NCBI RefSeq assembly: GCF_057098645.1
Contig: NZ_CM169472.1
Length of the DNA: 64,000 bases
Direction: 5' to 3' (one strand)
Every line of letters begins with the position of its first letter. The first letter of the stretch is position 1. The position numbers and the translations under genes are program-made. The notes below the pieces were generated by a model. It ran no database searches. It worked only from the letters and a program-made list of their open reading frames with translations, and had not been told where the DNA came from. Positions 8,987 through 49,308 of the stretch are shown here, one piece after another.

Positions 8987-9969
8987 TTCCTGATTATTTA
9001 ACTTTTATTCGCTTTCAGGATAAACGAAATCTGATATACATTTATGCTATTGGACTTATTCTGATAGGCTTTTATTGGAAAAATGCAGGGTTTACTTTTC
9101 CATCAGAGGATATTGGTGTAGTTAGTGGGATTCTGGCCCTGGTGCTGTATAATTTTATTTTTGATCTCAAGGCGTACTGGGCTTATAAATGCGTCACGAA
9201 GAATATCGATTTTTCGTGGTTTAAGAAAAAGCAGAACCACAAAATAGAATTATTTCTTACACAACCTCTGGTGGCAGGATTTCTGTCGTTAATCATGTTG
9301 AGTGCAATGAGTTGGGGGCTATACCAGCTTCTACCCTCGTTATATGCGCTGTTCCTGATTTCGTTACTTGGGCCGTTGGTCATCTTTCTGTTGTTTCGGA
9401 TGATCCGCACCAGTTATGTCAAGCAGGTCGCTATTTCAGTAGCGAAAAAAGTAAAATATAAAAGTCTGACTCGCTATGTGCTGCTTTCGGTGTGTATCTC
9501 AACGGTTGTTAACCTGCTTACTATCAGCCCGTTGCGTAACAGTGATTCTTTTGTGACAGAGGGGCAGTGGTTAACGTTTAAATCGATAATTGCATTGCTC
9601 ATTCTTTGTGGCGTAGTGTTGGCGATTAATCTATTTTTTCTGCGCTTCTCCAAGCGGTACGCTTTTCTGGGCAGGCTTTTTTTGCAGGAAATCGATCTGT
9701 TTTTCTCCAGTGAAAATGCGTTGTCGACCTTTTTTGCCAAGCCGCTTTGGCTTCGGTTATTCATATTGCTGGTTATTGAAGTGATGTGGATTACGCTGGT
9801 GTCGGTATTGGCAACGCTTGTGGAATGGCGGATTTGGTTTGAAGCCTATTTTTTACTCTGCTATGTACCGTGCTTAATTTACTATTTTTTCCATTGTCGG
9901 TTCCTCTGGCATAACGATTTTATGATGGCATGTGACATGTATTTCCGTTGGGGGCATTTTAATAAGTGA
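8983..9969 (+). CDS. ycdU: Polytopic inner-membrane protein YcdU
   Basis: 328 aa, multiple hydrophobic helices; ATGA overlap with the acyltransferase gene; position upstream of serX. Confidence 0.75.
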
Positions 9970-10120
9970 GGAAGTTACAGAAAGTGACCAGATAGCGCAT
10001 ATATGTTCTGTACTCTCTTGCGCATTTTGATTGTTGACTGAGCAATCAGACAGTTGATGTGCACGATTTCCCCTCGCCCTAACAGACGTGGGCGGGGGCT
10101 CCCGATGTGTGCAATATACG

Positions 10121-10148
10121 AAAAAAAAGCCCGTACTTTCGTACGGGC
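10121..10148 (-). terminator. Rho-independent terminator downstream of serX
   Basis: Plus strand A8 then GCCCGTAC-TTTC-GTACGGGC; on the minus strand this is a hairpin followed by a U-run just past the tRNA 3' end. Confidence 0.7.
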
Positions 10149-10161
10149 TCTTCTTTAAATA

Positions 10162-10249
10162 TGGCGGTGAGGGGGGGATTCGAACCCCCGATACGTTGCC
10201 GTATACACACTTTCCAGGCGTGCTCCTTCAGCCACTCGGACACCTCACC
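10162..10249 (-). tRNA. serX: tRNA-Ser (anticodon GGA), 88 nt with long variable arm and encoded CCA
   Basis: Reverse complement reads GGTGAGGTGTCCGAGTGGCTGAAGGAGCACGCCTGGAAAGTGTG...GGTTCGAATCCCCCCCTCACCGCCA; T-arm GGTTCGAATCC present. Confidence 0.9.
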
Positions 10250-15794: not shown

Positions 15795-16547
15795 GATGAA
15801 ACCCCGCTTTTTTTATTGATTGCACACCTGACAGCTGCCTCTAAAATAGAAGCACCAGAAGTACTGACAGATGTTGCACTGCTGTGTGTAGTAATAAATC
15901 AGCCCTAAATGGGTAAAATATAAAACTAATGGATTACATCTGATTTCAATCTAGCCATTACAAATCTTAAATCAAGTGTTAAACATGTAACTAAATGTAA
16001 CTCGTTATATTAAAATGTTAACATTAAGGTTCTATTAAGTTTAGAAATGATAGAAAAGTTGTACATTTGGTTTTTATTGCACAATTTTAAAAAATCATAC
16101 AAATGGTGATAACTTACTAATAATGCATATAAAAAATATTTCGGTGTAGTCCTTTCGTCATGTAAAACGTTCTTTTTTTTTCTCCACACCTCCGTGGACA
16201 ATTTTTTACTGCAAAAAGACGAGGTTTGTCACGGCTTGTGCGCAAGACATATCGCAGCAATCAGCGACGGGCAAGAAGAATGATTGTCTGGTGATTTTTG
16301 ATTGCGGAAAACCGAAATTTAAAAGAAAACAAAATATTTTTTGCGTAGATAACAACGTATTTACGTGGGTTTTAATACTTTGGTATGAACAAAAAAAGAA
16401 AAATACAACGCGCGGGTGAGTTATTAAAAATATTTCCGCAGACATACTTTCCATCGTAACGCAGCGTTAACAAAATACAGGTTGCGTTAACAACCAAGTT
16501 GAAATGATTTAATTTCTTAAATGTACGACCAGGTCCAGGGTGACAAC
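15795..16547. promoter_or_regulatory. csgD-csgB divergent intergenic regulatory region (~750 bp, AT-rich)
   Basis: Long AT-rich non-coding gap between divergent csgDEFG and csgBAC; only short spurious ORFs inside. Confidence 0.85.
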
Positions 16548-21820: not shown

Positions 21821-26003
<4,183 letters not shown>

Positions 26004-26013
26004 AAACGTAGTT

Positions 26014-26113
26014 GCCTGATGCGCTACGCTTATCAGGCCTACATCGTTCCTGCAATTTATTGATTTTGCAAGATTTTGTAGGTTGGGTAAGGCGTTCACG
26101 TCGCATCTGGCAA
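26014..26113. repeat. RIP/BIME element: two REP palindromes flanking an IHF-type spacer
   Basis: GCCTGATGCGCTACGCTTATCAGGCCTAC ... CAATTTATTGATTTTGCAAG ... GTAGGTTGGGTAAGGCGTTCACGTCGCATCTGGCA. Confidence 0.8.
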
Positions 26114-26130
26114 AAACAACGAGCCAATAA

Positions 26131-26160
26131 AAATACCGGCGTTATGCCGGTATTTTTTTA
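26131..26160 (+). terminator. Rho-independent terminator after opgGH
   Basis: ATACCGGCGTTATGCCGGTAT hairpin followed by T7. Confidence 0.75.
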
Positions 26161-26403: not shown

Positions 26404-26778
26404 TTAACGTTCATCCCACTCATCAGCTGCTGCGCGTCCTTCCTCGGTATCCAGCGGTGGCTCAAGCTGAAATTCCCCCTCGTCCCATTCATGTAATGTA
26501 TTCTCTTCCTGCCACTCCTGGCGGATCTCTATCTCATCATAGTCGCCATTAAAAACACTTTGCGCGGCTTCACCGCTAAGCATAGGTAAACATTCACCTT
26601 CTTCACCTTCGTCGGCAAAAAACTCAACTTGCCACATGATGTCGCCGTCCTGCAAAACGTATTTTTGGGCATTGAACTGTTGCACATTCGCATCTTCGGC
26701 GTCGATGCCGGGGTTGTCTGCAAGAAATTCTTCGCGTGCAGCGTCAATGGCTTCTTCAAGCGTTGCGTACATGGTCAT
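26404..26778 (-). CDS. msyB: Acidic protein MsyB
   Basis: 124 aa, very acidic; start MTMYATLEEAID. Confidence 0.9.
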   Translation of the reverse strand: MTMYATLEEAIDAAREEFLADNPGIDAEDANVQQFNAQKYVLQDGDIMWQVEFFADEGEEGECLPMLSGEAAQSVFNGDYDEIEIRQEWQEENTLHEWDEGEFQLEPPLDTEEGRAAADEWDER

Positions 26779-26860
26779 CACGATTCTCCCTTTGAGTTGA
26801 TGAGGTTTCAGGGAAAAGGATAGCTGATTCTCCGCTTTTGCAAGTATGAAAGGCGAAAAA

Positions 26861-28087
26861 TCAGTTCGATACCTGGGGTATTCGACGACGACGTAGACTG
26901 TTCCATGAATAGACTGCGTTGAATAACACTACGCCAGCGGTGACGAGAAATACCGCTCTGAAACCGTAGTTCGCTGAAATCGCTGCTCCCATCAATGGTC
27001 CGGTAACGTTGCCAATATCACGAAACGATTGGTTATAGCTGAAGATACGTCCGGCGATTTGGTTGCTCGAGTTGTAAACCAACAGGGTCTGTACGGCGGG
27101 GAGTAGTGCACCATCGGCGGCACCGAGCAAAAAACGTAAAATCCCAAGTTGTAATGGCGTCTGAACGTATGACATTGGGATCAACAGCAGTACAGAAAAG
27201 ATCAGCGCCGTAATCAGGATCTTTTCGGGGCCGATTCGATCGCCAAGTTTGCCGAGTCGTGGTGCACTCAGCAGAGCCGCCACGCCTGGCACCGAGGCGA
27301 TCATGCCACTGATAAAGGCGACGTTACTGACGTTACCCGCCAGTTCGCGGACATACAGCGTCAGAATGGGGGCTATTGAGCCCGTCGCCACCTGGATGAT
27401 TAACGTAGTGACAAACAGGCTGAGTACCAGTTTCGGGTTTTTAAGTGATGTCACCACTTCCCGCATGTGCAGCATCTCTTTTTTGCTGACCGGCTGGAAT
27501 TTTTCTCTGATGCAAAAGAGGGTGACGAAAAAGCAGAGTATGAGCACACTGGCGGTAATAAAGAATACCGGACGTAAGCCGTAGCTATCGGCGAGCAGGC
27601 CGCCAGCCATTGGGCCGAGCAACGCACCGCTAACGCCGCCTGTGGAGAGCGTACCCAGTGCCCAGCCGCTTTTATTACGCGGTACTTGTGTGGCGATAAG
27701 AGCATTAGCGTTGGGGACAAATCCGCCAAGTAACCCAAGAAGCGCCCGTAGGATCAAAAACTGCCAGATATTTTGTGCCAGCCCCATCAACACCATCACG
27801 ATGCCCATGCCGAGAGCAGAGCGTAATAGCATGAGTTTTCGGCCTTTACGGTCGGCGAGTCCACCCCAAAACGGTGAGGCGATGGCCGAAAATAAAAATG
27901 TAATGCTGAAGACAATACCGGACCACATATTCAGGGCGGAGTGGCCGGTAACGCCAAGCTGCTCAACGTAGAGGGGTAAGAAGGGCATTACCAGACTGAA
28001 GGCGGCACCGGTAAGAAAACAGCCTAGCCAGGCGACGATCAGGTTTCGTTTCCAGTTTATAGGGGTGTCATTTTCACAGGGTGACAT
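26861..28087 (-). CDS. mdtG: MFS multidrug efflux transporter MdtG
   Basis: 408 aa polytopic MFS protein; recognised. Confidence 0.9.
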
Positions 28088-28258
28088 AGCAATTCGCTGT
28101 TGGTGCGCCAGGCGCGGTGAACATAAGAAGAAAAGATAAGCACACTAATTATGCGCCCGACTTCCAGGGGGCGCAATCCAGAGAGCTTTTATCGCTAAAT
28201 CAGGGGGATTTGCTGTGGTAATGCCGGATGCCATTCTGAAGCATCCGGCATGGAAGAT

Positions 28259-30463: not shown

Positions 30464-30487
30464 TGCCGGATGCGTGCCATCCGGCAA
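30464..30487. terminator. Stem-loop between convergent yceA and yceI (possible terminator)
   Basis: TTGCCGGATG-CGTGC-CATCCGGCAA palindrome; no clear T-run on either side. Confidence 0.4.
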
Positions 30488-31553: not shown

Positions 31554-32749
<1,196 letters not shown>

Positions 32750-36407: not shown

Positions 36408-36458
36408 TAATCTCTATGCTCCGGCTGAAGGGATGTTTTTGCCGGACACAAAGGATAA

Positions 36459-47598: not shown

Positions 47599-48354
47599 AT
47601 GGATCACGCAATTTATACCGCGATGGGAGCAGCCAGCCAGACGCTGAATCAACAGGCGGTAACCGCCAGTAATCTGGCCAATGCCTCTACGCCCGGTTTT
47701 CGCGCGCAGTTAAACGCCTTGCGCGCAGTGCCGGTGGAAGGGCTTTCACTGCCCACGCGCACGCTGGTAACGGCGTCAACACCGGGTGCAGACATGACGC
47801 CCGGCAAGATGGATTACACCTCGCGCCCGCTGGACGTTGCATTGCAGCAGGATGGCTGGCTGGCCGTGCAGACCGCTGACGGCAGCGAAGGGTATACGCG
47901 TAATGGCAGCATTCAGGTTGATCCCACCGGACAACTGACAATTCAGGGGCATCCGGTGATAGGCGAGGCGGGGCCAATTGCTGTGCCGGAAGGGGCGGAA
48001 ATCACTATTGCTGCCGATGGCACAATCTCGGCGCTGAATCCGGGCGATCCGGCAAACACGGTTGCGCCAGTAGGGCGTCTTAAACTGGTGAAAGCCACGG
48101 GCAGCGAAGTGCAGCGCGGTGACGACGGCATTTTTCGTTTAAGCGCAGAAACCCAGGCCACGCGTGGGCCGGTACTGCAGGCAGATCCAACCTTGCGTGT
48201 GATGTCGGGTGTTCTGGAAGGCAGTAATGTCAATACCGTTGCGGCAATGAGCGACATGATTGCCAGCGCGCGGCGTTTTGAAATGCAGATGAAGGTGATC
48301 AGCAGCGTCGATGATAACGCAGGCCGTGCCAACCAACTGCTGTCGATGAGTTAA
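47599..48354 (+). CDS. flgF: Flagellar proximal rod protein FlgF
   Basis: 251 aa. Confidence 0.92.
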   Translation: MDHAIYTAMGAASQTLNQQAVTASNLANASTPGFRAQLNALRAVPVEGLSLPTRTLVTASTPGADMTPGKMDYTSRPLDVALQQDGWLAVQTADGSEGYTRNGSIQVDPTGQLTIQGHPVIGEAGPIAVPEGAEITIAADGTISALNPGDPANTVAPVGRLKLVKATGSEVQRGDDGIFRLSAETQATRGPVLQADPTLRVMSGVLEGSNVNTVAAMSDMIASARRFEMQMKVISSVDDNAGRANQLLSMS

Positions 48355-48380
48355 TTGAAAGGATACATGACAAGTATAAG

Positions 48381-48481
<101 letters not shown>

Positions 48482-48507
48482 AGAAAACATATGCACTTTG
48501 TCACTAA

Positions 48508-49308
<801 letters not shown>

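Follow-up and report, generated by a model that had tools for sequence, protein, structure and literature searches.

Two copies of the BIME-1 (RIP) repeat in the opgH-yceK and flgF-flgG spacers of an Escherichia coli chromosome: insertion and decay

The window analyzed here is a 64,000-nt stretch of an E. coli chromosome that extends from ycdU to fabG (RefSeq assembly GCF_057098645.1, contig NZ_CM169472.1). Two related repeats, both extragenic, are found in this window and are referred to below as elements 1 and 2. Element 1 is located in the 3' UTR of opgH (mdoH), between the stop codon of this gene (26001-26003) and the start of yceK (26176). The whole copy was matched on the minus strand at 26002-26126 by an nhmmer profile of the repeat family (profile positions 9-133; 120.6 bits; E = 1.3e-36) and, read on this strand, it consists of an A-like flank, a Y REP, an L linker, a Z1 REP and a B-like flank. 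The Z1-type REP GCCTGATGCGCTACGCTTATCAGGCCTAC (26014-26042, plus strand) has the same sequence as the short Z REP in canonical BIME-1 copies; it starts 10 nt past the opgH stop codon and folds as DNA with a predicted energy of -8.4 kcal/mol (z = -4.3). The L linker (26043-26077, minus strand) forms a small TGCAA...TTGCA hairpin according to the family alignment and to Rfam RF02751, and it carries the IHF core AATCAATAAATTG (26053-26065, minus strand), an exact match to WATCAANNNNTTR. Together with its 30-nt context, this core was found unchanged in 4,234 of 5,426 E. coli genomes (78%); the element itself is present in nearly all of E. coli, which fits function as well as recent common ancestry. 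The Y-type REP GTAGGTTGGGTAAGGCGTTCACGTCGCATCTGGC (26078-26111, plus strand) is decayed: it shares 82% identity with its counterpart in element 2, and its predicted DNA fold when taken alone is only -2.0 kcal/mol (z = 0.02), against -8.7 kcal/mol for the K-12 allele. Outside the repeat itself, and given here as its context, lies the intrinsic terminator of opgGH (ATACCGGC GTTAT GCCGGTAT followed by a T-run; 26133-26159, plus strand), which appears in the fold as a hairpin with a U-run. This terminator is kept in E. albertii, E. marmotae, Salmonella, Citrobacter and Kluyvera, whether REPs are present upstream of it or not.

Element 2 occupies the spacer that follows the stop codon of flgF and precedes the ribosome-binding site of flgG. 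It is a 158-nt insertion (48356-48513, minus strand) that holds a whole copy of the same repeat (profile match at 48373-48503; 95.1 bits; E = 9.4e-29), and against Salmonella, Enterobacter, Pseudocitrobacter and one further taxon the extra sequence aligns as a clean insert flanked by TAAT and ACAGGACATTTTATG. Its Z1-like REP GCCCGATGCGCAAGCTTATCGGGTCTAT (48383-48410, plus strand) differs in the stem by changes that preserve pairing in the alignment, with a predicted DNA fold of -6.4 kcal/mol (z = -2.4). The L linker (48411-48446, minus strand) has an 18-mer in common with element 1, and the IHF core AATCAATAAATTG (48422-48434, minus strand) is again an exact match, which is the minority allele at this site. 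The Y-type REP GTAGGCCGGATAAGGCGTTTACGCCGCATCCGGC (48447-48480, plus strand) is canonical; it folds as DNA at -12.2 kcal/mol (z = -4.6) and is also matched by the Y half of Rfam naRNA4, though without reaching the gathering score. The original prediction had placed two REP palindromes at each locus. This is true of element 2, where both REPs fold, but at element 1 only the left one (Z1) is still a palindrome. It had also placed the two loci at 26014-26113 and 48381-48481, but the profile shows a longer unit in both cases.

The near-identical central motif reported at these two loci was confirmed. The longest exact word common to both elements is the 18-mer GCAATTTATTGATTTTGC, whose sole places in the window are 26052-26069 and 48421-48438. 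The 17-mer CAATTTATTGATTTTGC likewise occurs twice, at 26053 and 48422, and no third copy was found in the window even when allowing up to three mismatches. On the minus strand, both cores (AATCAATAAATTG) match the IHF core consensus WATCAANNNNTTR at 13 of 13 positions, and the window as a whole presents nine sites of this consensus versus 2.8 expected. The motif could in principle be a chance likeness between two AT-rich spacers, since 64 kb should contain approximately 0.24 exact 17-mer repeats by chance, and a single common 17-mer, taken alone, is only mildly unlikely. However, the likeness spans the whole elements, approximately 130 nt, with 94 of 134 aligned columns identical, and each element matches the family profile (E of 1e-36 and 9e-29). 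We consider chance to be refuted, and its remaining probability to be negligible.

The profile was built from 41 elements of other enterobacteria composed of a Y REP, an L linker and a Z1 REP, and its full-length matches in the window are restricted to 26002-26126 (E = 1.3e-36) and 48373-48503 (E = 9.4e-29). Because this Y-L-Z1 profile matches at both loci, we assign them to BIME-1: judged by alignment, both stretches are ordinary copies of this long-known intergenic repeat of E. coli, also called RIP (repetitive IHF-binding palindromic element) or RIB (reiterative IHF BIME). Among the bacterial interspersed mosaic elements (BIMEs) of E. coli, it forms the single-copy class. The assignment to the RIP type (REP-IHF-REP) was therefore right, each locus having a Z1 REP, an L linker with an IHF core and an inverted Y REP, in single copy. 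Membership was judged by alignment because the RefSeq record of K-12 lists no curated repeat_region or RIP features; a search for a GenBank-style RIP note also found none. The comparison with known REP/BIME sequences that had been proposed as a check was thus made against the 41 foreign Y-L-Z1 copies rather than against curated sets, and it was passed.

BIME-1 has been described as a combination of one z1 and one y REP with a long conserved L linker, often with an IHF site, in single copy (PMC3333891). In each element, a Y REP (decayed in element 1) and a Z1 REP, inverted relative to each other, flank an L linker, of 35 and 36 nt respectively (approximately 35 nt in the family), that aligns to the family L consensus. 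The IHF consensus inside L is exact in both copies, and each locus holds a single unit with no tandem iteration. They further resemble BIME-1 in their extragenic site, their conserved outer flanks and their membership of a dispersed family with many copies. The unit is an imperfect palindrome of approximately 125-158 nt, made of a Y REP, a linker L of approximately 35 nt, an inverted Z1 REP and short conserved outer flanks. Relative to the BIME-1 norm we found no essential difference. Element 1 departs from it by its Y REP, which is decayed in this strain, and element 2 by lying inside an operon, in the gap that separates two cistrons, whereas element 1 does lie at the 3' end of its transcription unit. 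Both copies also possess a less common L variant, GCAAAATCAATAAATTGC, with a perfect IHF core, whereas the majority of BIME-1 copies present GCAAATTCAATATATTGC, with one mismatch.

The dispersed nature of the family was apparent in several genomes. Matches to the L pattern numbered 15 in the representative genome of E. albertii and at least eight in Pseudocitrobacter, nearly all of them flanked by REPs, and canonical BIME-1 copies are found in K-12 between cueO and gcd and between ymdF and rutG. We scanned 100,044 species genomes with a degenerate L core: nearly all the matches in Escherichia and Pseudocitrobacter stood between a Y REP and a Z1 REP, and in the same scan no REPs were found beside the chance matches in unrelated taxa. 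A BLAST search of the 43-nt L linker against 28 Gb returned approximately three places per genome, a number limited by the E-value and no measure of family size. The finding is thus already known, and the two stretches should be labeled as BIME-1 (RIP) copies and not as new regulatory sites; for genome annotation, this is a tidy negative.

The L linker is also recognized by an Rfam family of small RNAs, ES036 (CssrF; RF02751). On element 1, this model matched 26035-26077 on the minus strand with 47.9 bits, above its gathering score of 37.6, and this match would suggest that the linker is a small-RNA gene and that the REPs are incidental. The match to element 2 is partial and remains under the gathering score (18.9 bits). 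Moreover, the match on element 1 lies on the non-transcribed strand, antisense to the opgGH and yceK transcription units, with no promoter-like site, and the model also matches the L linker in eight of 13 unrelated E. albertii copies of BIME-1, which indicates that it models the repeat and not a gene. Indeed, the ES036 consensus AAAuUUGUGCAAAUUCAAUAAAUUGCAGGAaAUACGUAGGCCU corresponds to the L linker plus the beginning of the Z1 REP. Because the model recognizes many BIME-1 copies, its match here is no sign of a dedicated small-RNA gene, an explanation that we rejected as highly improbable. By its consensus and its matches, the ES036 family would be in effect the BIME-1 L linker, and curators may note that it acts as a detector of this linker. 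A literature search on ES036/CssrF gave nothing relevant.

We further analyzed the origin of the two copies. Alignments across genera show both of them to be insertions specific to the Escherichia lineage into short spacers that existed before. Element 1 is inserted after the opgH stop codon and ahead of the conserved intrinsic terminator, and element 2 after the stop codon of flgF and ahead of the Shine-Dalgarno sequence of flgG. The flgF-flgG spacer measures only 8-15 nt in Salmonella (13 nt), Enterobacter kobei, Pseudocitrobacter and one further taxon, and a divergent Escherichia (L073) possesses the insertion with its Y REP partly deleted. After opgH, no REP was found in Citrobacter (C. 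braakii), and the opgH-yceK spacers of Salmonella and Kluyvera contain unrelated hairpins. Within Escherichia, the spacer of E. marmotae retains L and Y alone, and that of E. albertii holds decayed remnants.

The flgF-flgG site is strongly dimorphic among the 5,426 E. coli genomes: 3,476 carry BIME-1 and 1,944 (36%) carry another repeat, so that a structured spacer of either kind is present in 5,420 of them. The IHF core is intact in just 155 genomes and broken (TTGAT to TCGAT) in 3,144, which represent 90% of the BIME-1 carriers at this site; the broken-core allele, AATCGATAAATTG, is the form of K-12. Because the intact core is so rare at flgF-flgG (155/5,426), the near-identity of the central motif in this window appears to be partly a peculiarity of the lineage. 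The other repeat uses the same insertion point and has its outer ~20 nt on each side in common with the BIME-1 allele, but its interior, CCCTCGCCCCTTTGGGGAGAGGGTTAGGGTGAGGGG, is unrelated: it is a GC-rich palindromic sequence without REP or IHF core. It is dispersed in enterobacteria as well, and it is probably of the Box C type, named in the surveys of E. coli repeats by Bachellier and colleagues. On the aligned sequences, the flgF-flgG junction is a natural allelic series composed of spacers with no insert (in related genera), intact-core BIME-1, broken-core BIME-1 and the GC-rich repeat. Across both loci, the comparison of alleles shows copies that are decaying or being replaced.

IHF occupancy was assessed with the K-12 ChIP-chip data of Myers et al. 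2013 (Table S4; PMC3688515), obtained in anaerobic glucose minimal medium. The check that the original prediction had proposed gave a negative answer: in this one strain and one condition, no IHF peak of the table lies over either locus, the nearest one being approximately 350 bp from the L motif of opgH-yceK and more than 1.5 kb from that of flgF-flgG. Read with no coordinate offset, the table would put the opgH-yceK core inside the peak 1113036-1113658. However, the ndh FNR site is 777 bp lower in these coordinates than in NC_000913.3, and when 14 perfect IHF cores were scanned over a range of offsets, the maximum came at 700-800 bp (six of 14 in peaks, versus three of 14 at zero); for these two reasons we rejected the zero-offset reading. 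The K-12 alleles differ from those of the window by an A-tract base at element 1, where K-12 has AAAG, and by a core base at element 2. For the family, a sample of eight elements with an L linker was taken from 392 kb of K-12, and four of them fall in IHF peaks, relative to ~14-16% expected from peak coverage. Array probes located over repeats may also perform poorly. Given these differences of allele and the single strain and condition, IHF may still bind in the strain of the window.

These data bear on the proposal that both copies are functional architectural sites, at which IHF would bind L between REPs that extrude or interact with gyrase and would thereby shape topology, or insulate supercoils, at the end of opgGH and in the flg operon. 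In this strain, both copies possess a perfect IHF core, and in element 1 the window allele presents, upstream of it, the A-tract ACAAAATCTTGCAAAATCAA that is seen in copies within ChIP peaks; the occupancy of half of the sampled K-12 elements and the in vitro binding of IHF to RIB/RIP elements, as reported by Boccard & Prentki 1993, point in the same direction. Under the reading favored below, too, these perfect cores make it probable that IHF is able to bind and bend both L linkers here. However, K-12 has no peak at either locus despite the perfect core of its element 1, and the flgF-flgG core is broken in 3,144 and replaced with its element in 1,944 of the 5,426 genomes. Both elements are absent from the equivalent sites of Salmonella, Citrobacter, Enterobacter and Pseudocitrobacter, the Y REP in element 1 has, by its predicted fold, lost the ability to extrude on its own, and gyrase favors BIME-2 over BIME-1 (PMC6379681; PMC1475751). 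The dimorphism of flgF-flgG and the loss of its IHF core argue against a conserved IHF role there, and nothing indicates that IHF binding is needed at these two sites. What is supported is the occupancy of the BIME-1 family by IHF, not that of these two copies, and we consider their architectural role unlikely.

We estimate at roughly 85% the probability that the two elements are BIME-1 copies inserted in Escherichia that persist as decaying passengers, with effects that are mostly exerted at the RNA level. They would be passengers left by the dissemination of REPs and BIMEs, which is usually attributed to the RayT/TnpA-REP tyrosine transposase acting on single-stranded hairpins. Both copies would be co-transcribed with the upstream gene, on the plus strand, and would form very stable RNA hairpins: the predicted RNA folds reach -61.4 kcal/mol (z = -5.6) for element 1 and -60.7 kcal/mol (z = -4.4) for element 2. 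In element 1, the decayed Y REP is still predicted to pair with the Z1 REP in the RNA, forming one long hairpin. It is from this co-transcription and from the stability of the hairpins that present-day effects are expected at the RNA level. Such a hairpin would constitute a barrier to 3'-to-5' exonucleases and would favor the upstream mRNA (flgB-F and opgGH). At opgH, it would also hamper terminating ribosomes, because the structure begins 4-10 nt past the stop codon (4 nt in the predicted fold, 10 nt for the REP itself). The flgG Shine-Dalgarno sequence is unpaired in the predicted fold. A promoter scan found no promoter-like sites in either element, and a terminator scan returned one weak match, on the minus strand at 26123-26140.

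The functional part of the original prediction, IHF-bound architectural or mRNA-stability elements, thus holds only in part. Given where the copies lie and how they fold, mRNA stability or translation could plausibly be affected. REPs have been reported to protect upstream mRNA, to mark stable 3' ends and, within less than 16 nt of a stop codon, to lower translation (PMC6061677; PMC12306157). The additional 3' protection of opgGH by REPs may nevertheless be redundant, because the operon has its own conserved terminator hairpin downstream. These RNA-level effects are most likely incidental, and both copies look dispensable rather than new.

A stronger version would hold that the copies have been co-opted and selected as post-transcriptional regulators, the flgF-flgG copy setting the ratio of flgB-F to flgG-J, by stabilizing the upstream mRNA or by attenuating transcription, and the opgH copy lowering OpgH synthesis by stalling terminating ribosomes. 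Both copies lie within operons or 3' UTRs, are transcribed and have very stable predicted folds; the insertion spared the flgG Shine-Dalgarno sequence; and at opgH both the REP (10 nt past the stop) and the predicted helix (4 nt) fall within the reported limit of <16 nt. Stabilization of mRNA by REPs and attenuation by BIMEs have precedents, cited in PMC6061677, and the other repeat found at flgF-flgG is a GC-rich palindrome as well, which leaves a structured spacer in 5,420 of the 5,426 genomes. Against this, a junction of 8-15 nt suffices in other genera, and the decay of the REPs and the replacement of alleles suggest a weak constraint, or none, on the specific sequence. We consider selected co-option possible but doubtful, and we favor passengers with incidental effects.

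The dimorphism of the flgF-flgG spacer may be of broader use: two unrelated repeats occupy one insertion point and most of the BIME-1 alleles are without an intact core. Such natural variants lend themselves to testing whether RIP elements have any effect inside an operon. It could be imagined that the alleles differently tune the expression of the proximal (flgB-F) versus distal (flgG-J) genes, or an IHF-dependent topology of the operon. This is speculative and, in our view, rather improbable. If true, the turnover of 'junk' repeats would translate into heritable variation in motility, and the TGACA...TGTCA termini common to both alleles would reflect one mechanism of insertion or replacement for two repeat families.

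The elements can also be compared with REPINs, the doublets associated with RAYTs. These are similar in that two inverted REPs form one long hairpin, as predicted for the RNA of element 1, and also in being non-autonomous, in their lineage-specific insertion and decay, and in their link to a single-copy rayT flanked by BIMEs. The rayT gene of K-12 (247637-248134) indeed has BIMEs on both sides. The generic definition of REPINs differs by being without the conserved L linker and the IHF site of BIME-1.

Finally, a third REP cluster, a pair at 59726-59800, is located between rluC and yceF, two convergent genes. It had been described as having no central motif, and this was borne out: the family profile reaches only its Y-REP part (59726-59759; E = 4e-7), and neither the profile nor the core scan detected an L motif or an IHF core in it. 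A full BIME-1 located between rluC and yceF in Pseudocitrobacter was considered as a relative of this cluster, but the two do not align and common descent is unsupported. BIME-2 and atypical BIMEs are assembled from the same REP family, and the third cluster resembles them in its two inverted REPs and short linker. BIME-2 combines Y with a long Z2 REP, short S-type linkers and tandem arrays, and is the preferred target of gyrase, whereas elements 1 and 2 have Z1, L and a single copy. We rejected an assignment of the cluster to BIME-2, which requires Y and long Z2 REPs, short linkers and tandem iteration: no Z2-type REP GCCTGATGCGACGCTGGCGCGTCTTATCAGGCCTAC was found in it, and it is a single pair with no iteration. 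Its first REP (59726-59759) has Z-like stem ends and a Y-like interior, and is followed by a short linker of 14 nt and then by a shortened Y-like hairpin (59774-59800); their predicted DNA folds are -12.9 and -10.4 kcal/mol. The cluster is best called an atypical REP pair, and it is nearly identical in K-12.

The two predicted elements lie in intergenic spacers. Placing the clusters with the annotation of RM9872 and K-12, we found the first (element 1, 26014-26113) between the mdoH/opgH stop codon (26001-26003) and the yceK start (26176), the second (element 2, 48381-48481) between the flgF stop (48352-48354) and the flgG start (48527) within the flgBCDEFGHIJ operon, and a third (59710-59801) in the spacer of rluC and yceF, which converge. 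The 801-base stretch surrounding the finding was matched over most of its length in 5,389 of 5,426 complete E. coli genomes, with 100% identity in several O145:H28 strains.

The 17-mer CAATTTATTGATTTTGC occurs at exactly two places in the window (26053 and 48422), with no further copy there at up to 3 mismatches; the sharing of such a word is only mildly unlikely by itself (chance expectation in 64 kb: ~0.24). The longest word common to both elements is the 18-mer GCAATTTATTGATTTTGC, their similarity extends across ~130 nt (94/134 aligned columns identical), and the minus strand of each carries AATCAATAAATTG, which matches the IHF core WATCAANNNNTTR exactly. The near-identical central motif announced in the original prediction is thus present at both loci. 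We scanned one genome per species (100,044 species) with the degenerate core GCAAAWTCAATAWATTGC, which listed at least 120 stretches. Among the matches listed, at least 15 fall in Escherichia albertii and at least 8 in a divergent Escherichia, and two Pseudocitrobacter genomes are also represented. With few exceptions, these Escherichia and Pseudocitrobacter matches present a Y-type REP (TGCCGGATGCGGCGTGAACGCCTTATCCGGCCTAC) on one side and a short Z1-type REP (GTAGGCCTGATAAGCGTAGCGCATCAGGCA) on the other, with additional conserved flanks beyond the REPs. Because the search pattern contains no REPs, their presence beside the core constitutes an independent test. Also among the matches listed, the single ones in unrelated phyla have no REPs beside them, and a few enterobacterial ones fall in a conserved coding sequence.

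A profile HMM derived from 41 copies with the layout Y REP, L linker, Z1 REP yielded only two full-length matches in the window, both on the minus strand: 26126..26002 (120.6 bits, E 1.3e-36) at element 1 and 48503..48373 (95.1 bits, E 9.4e-29) at element 2. BIME-1 elements are defined by z1 and y REPs, a long conserved L linker that often holds an IHF site, and their occurrence as single copies (Ton-Hoang et al. 2012, PMC3333891). Both elements fit this layout and their classification as REP-IHF-REP (RIP) elements is therefore correct. The repeat unit is longer than predicted (26002-26126 and 48373-48503). The finding is real, correctly classified and already known, the BIME-1 repeat family having been recognized since the early 1990s.

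Nothing in the anatomy of the two elements departs from this family. On the plus strand, element 1 consists of a Z1 REP (26014-26042) that folds well (-8.4 kcal/mol as DNA, z -4.3), the L linker (26043-26077) and a Y REP (26078-26111) that has accumulated changes in the window strain and alone no longer folds (DNA -2.0 kcal/mol, z 0.02; -8.7 for the K-12 allele). Element 2 comprises a Z1-like REP (48383-48410) whose stem changes retain pairing (fold -6.4 kcal/mol), the L linker (48411-48446) and a canonical Y REP (48447-48480; fold -12.2 kcal/mol, z -4.6).

Element 1 is recognized by a current Rfam model, RF02751 ('ES036 (CssrF) sRNA'), which matches 26035-26077 on the minus strand with 47.9 bits (gathering score 37.6); element 2 scores 18.9 bits against the same threshold. 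The consensus of RF02751 corresponds to the L linker plus GUAGGCCU, and among 13 BIME-1 copies of E. albertii (L006-L018), 8 have an L linker that scores above the gathering score. In practice, this model is in effect a detector of the BIME-1 L linker. We rejected element 1 as an ES036 sRNA gene because its match runs antisense to the transcription units around it and nothing resembling a promoter was found at the locus. Matches to RF02751 should not be taken for sRNA genes unless backed by expression data.

The flgF-flgG spacer measures 13 nt in Salmonella enterica, 15 in Enterobacter kobei, 8 in Pseudocitrobacter and 11 in a further relative. Alignment with relatives shows that E. coli has a 158-nt stretch (48356-48513) cleanly inserted between TAAT and ACAGGACATTTTATG, with the flgG Shine-Dalgarno sequence kept intact. 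In a divergent Escherichia (L073; flgG 91.6% identical), the insertion is present and its Y REP is partly deleted. Across the 5,426 complete E. coli genomes, 3,476 carry the BIME-1 allele and 1,944 an unrelated GC-rich palindromic repeat (CCCTCGCCCCTTTGGGGAGAGGGTTAGGGTGAGGGG), which we take to be probably of the 'box C' type. This repeat, represented by E. coli STEC1589 (L143, 156-292), has exactly the same insertion point as BIME-1 (window 48356-48513), and the two alleles have ~20 nt of outer flank in common on each side (ATGACA ... CTTGTCACTAATCCACT). Neither repeat is found at flgF-flgG of Salmonella, Enterobacter and Pseudocitrobacter. A metagenome contig (L134, FlgF 91% identical) ends 8 nt past the flgF stop codon; this end resembles an assembly break at a repeat, and this relative may also carry one at the site.

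Only 155 genomes with BIME-1 at flgF-flgG, the window lineage included, possess an intact IHF core (TTATTGATT), versus 3,144, K-12 included, with a broken core (TTATCGATT = AATCGATAAATTG). The deciding base is T at window 48431 (TTGAT, core complete) and C in K-12 (TCGAT, core broken; L004 ~17635). Since L073 has T at this base, C looks derived and is now the majority allele. It is therefore only in a minority lineage that both loci show the near-identical motif, and the core at flgF-flgG is clearly free of strong constraint.

At opgH-yceK, an intrinsic terminator (ATACCGGC..GCCGGTATTTTTTT) is kept in every genus examined. Between the opgH stop codon and this terminator, we found no element in Citrobacter braakii, unrelated hairpins in Salmonella and Kluyvera, L and Y without Z1 in E. 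marmotae, and decayed remnants in E. albertii. Of the 5,426 E. coli genomes, 4,234 have an exact copy of the 30-nt context of the element 1 core. The comparisons at both sites show that the two copies were inserted, within the Escherichia lineage, into short spacers that already existed, and later decayed.

The check proposed with the original prediction, IHF ChIP data, was run on the K-12 ChIP-chip peaks obtained in anaerobic glucose minimal medium (Table S4 of Myers et al. 2013, PMC3688515). Their coordinates follow an older sequence version (U00096.2): an FNR site at 1165158 in that paper and at 1165935 in NC_000913.3 gives an offset of 777, and overlap was highest at an offset of 700-800 bp when 14 perfect IHF cores were slid against the peaks. 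In these data, which represent one condition and one strain and in which the array probes may do poorly over repeats, neither locus is among the called peaks: the opgH-yceK core (old coordinate ~1112680) lies 351-357 bp from the nearest (1113036-1113658) and the flgF-flgG linker >1.5 kb from any. K-12 differs from the window by one A-tract base in element 1 and by the core base in element 2. The peak nearest to element 1 (window ~26410-27033) spans msyB and the msyB-mdtG spacer, with no perfect IHF core under it. We calibrated the data set on 392 kb of K-12 in which every L-bearing element was located with the profile: 4 of 8 (mutT/yacG, cueO/gcd, nlpE/yaeF and ymdF/rutG) fall in IHF peaks, against ~14-16% expected from peak coverage. 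Perfect IHF cores were in peaks in 10/14 and 6/14 cases in two sampled K-12 regions. This supports IHF occupancy in vivo at the level of the BIME-1 family and the capacity of the data set to detect such elements. A selected DNA-architectural role would accord with this family-level occupancy; with both loci outside the peaks and one core mostly broken, we consider it unlikely. IHF could probably bind both copies in the window strain, yet would be unneeded there. The preferred gyrase target is BIME-2, not BIME-1 (PMC6379681; PMC1475751).

Each element lies on the strand that is transcribed in its operon, and the predicted folds of both RNAs are far more stable than shuffled controls. The element 1 region (-61.4 kcal/mol, z -5.6) is predicted to form a single long Z1-Y helix starting 4 nt past the opgH stop codon, with the L hairpin at its tip, followed by the terminator. 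For the element 2 region (-60.7 kcal/mol, z -4.4), three hairpins closed by outer-flank pairing are predicted, with the flgG ribosome-binding site free. REPs shield upstream mRNA against 3' exonucleases and act as markers of stable 3' ends (PMC6061677) and, according to work that PMC12306157 summarizes, a REP whose distance to the stop codon is <16 nt lowers translation of the upstream gene. Element 2 might thus bring some stabilization of flgB-F relative to flgG-J, and element 1 some lowering of OpgH translation. These folds make a selected post-transcriptional role possible; with decay at both sites and an unrelated repeat at flgF-flgG in many genomes, it remains rather doubtful. We favor, with a probability of roughly 0.85, the reading that both elements are BIME-1 passengers of REP/BIME spread whose present effects, if any, would be mainly at the RNA level. 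This reading and the two selected roles are not mutually exclusive and can hold together. The most useful by-products of the analysis are that the flgF-flgG spacer is dimorphic, that most E. coli have lost the IHF core and that ES036 amounts to the BIME-1 linker.

The third cluster contains a REP, Z-like at its stem ends and Y-like inside, together with a 14-nt linker and a shortened hairpin that resembles Y. Its profile match is limited to the Y REP (59726-59759, E 4e-7), and no Z2 REP, L motif or IHF core was found in it, as expected from the prediction that it lacks the central motif. It is an atypical REP pair, neither BIME-1 nor typical BIME-2. A Pseudocitrobacter metagenome-assembled genome (L077, ~8600-8835) has a full Y-L-Z1 BIME-1 in the rluC-yceF spacer, the spacer that in E. 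coli holds the L-less pair. Failure of these two spacers to align suggests that the same convergent region was colonized independently.

Several other features of the window were observed. From 10155 onward, it is 99.97% identical to strain RM9872, except for a 1,195-bp insertion (31555-32749) missing in RM9872 and K-12. This insertion breaks up yceJ (cytochrome b561) in its 5' part, has a minus-strand ORF of 326 aa and is flanked by a CTAA duplication; its ends (GGAAGGTGCGAATAAG / CTTGTTCGCACCTTCC) are presumably those of IS5. The left part (1-10154; ycdU, beta-ketoacyl synthase genes and an ABC permease) directly adjoins tRNA-Ser (serX, 10165-10249). In RM9872, the neighbor of serX is an island with cah, a dynamin-like gene and toxin-antitoxin genes, and in RM12761 (O145:H28) the counterpart of the left 10 kb lies ~113 kb upstream of opgH-yceK; the window strain therefore lacks that island. 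Rfam matches to expected families comprise the ES056 sRNA upstream of csgD (15850-15941), the PyrC leader (36408-36457), the RNase E 5' UTR element (58189-58525) and the SraB sRNA (60387-60555). Finally, perfect short hairpins with REP-like arms (GCCGGATGC...GCATCCGGC) are located at the 3' ends of lpxL/mdtG (28223-28249) and trhO/yceI (30465-30486), and look like terminator hairpins akin to half-REPs rather than full REPs.
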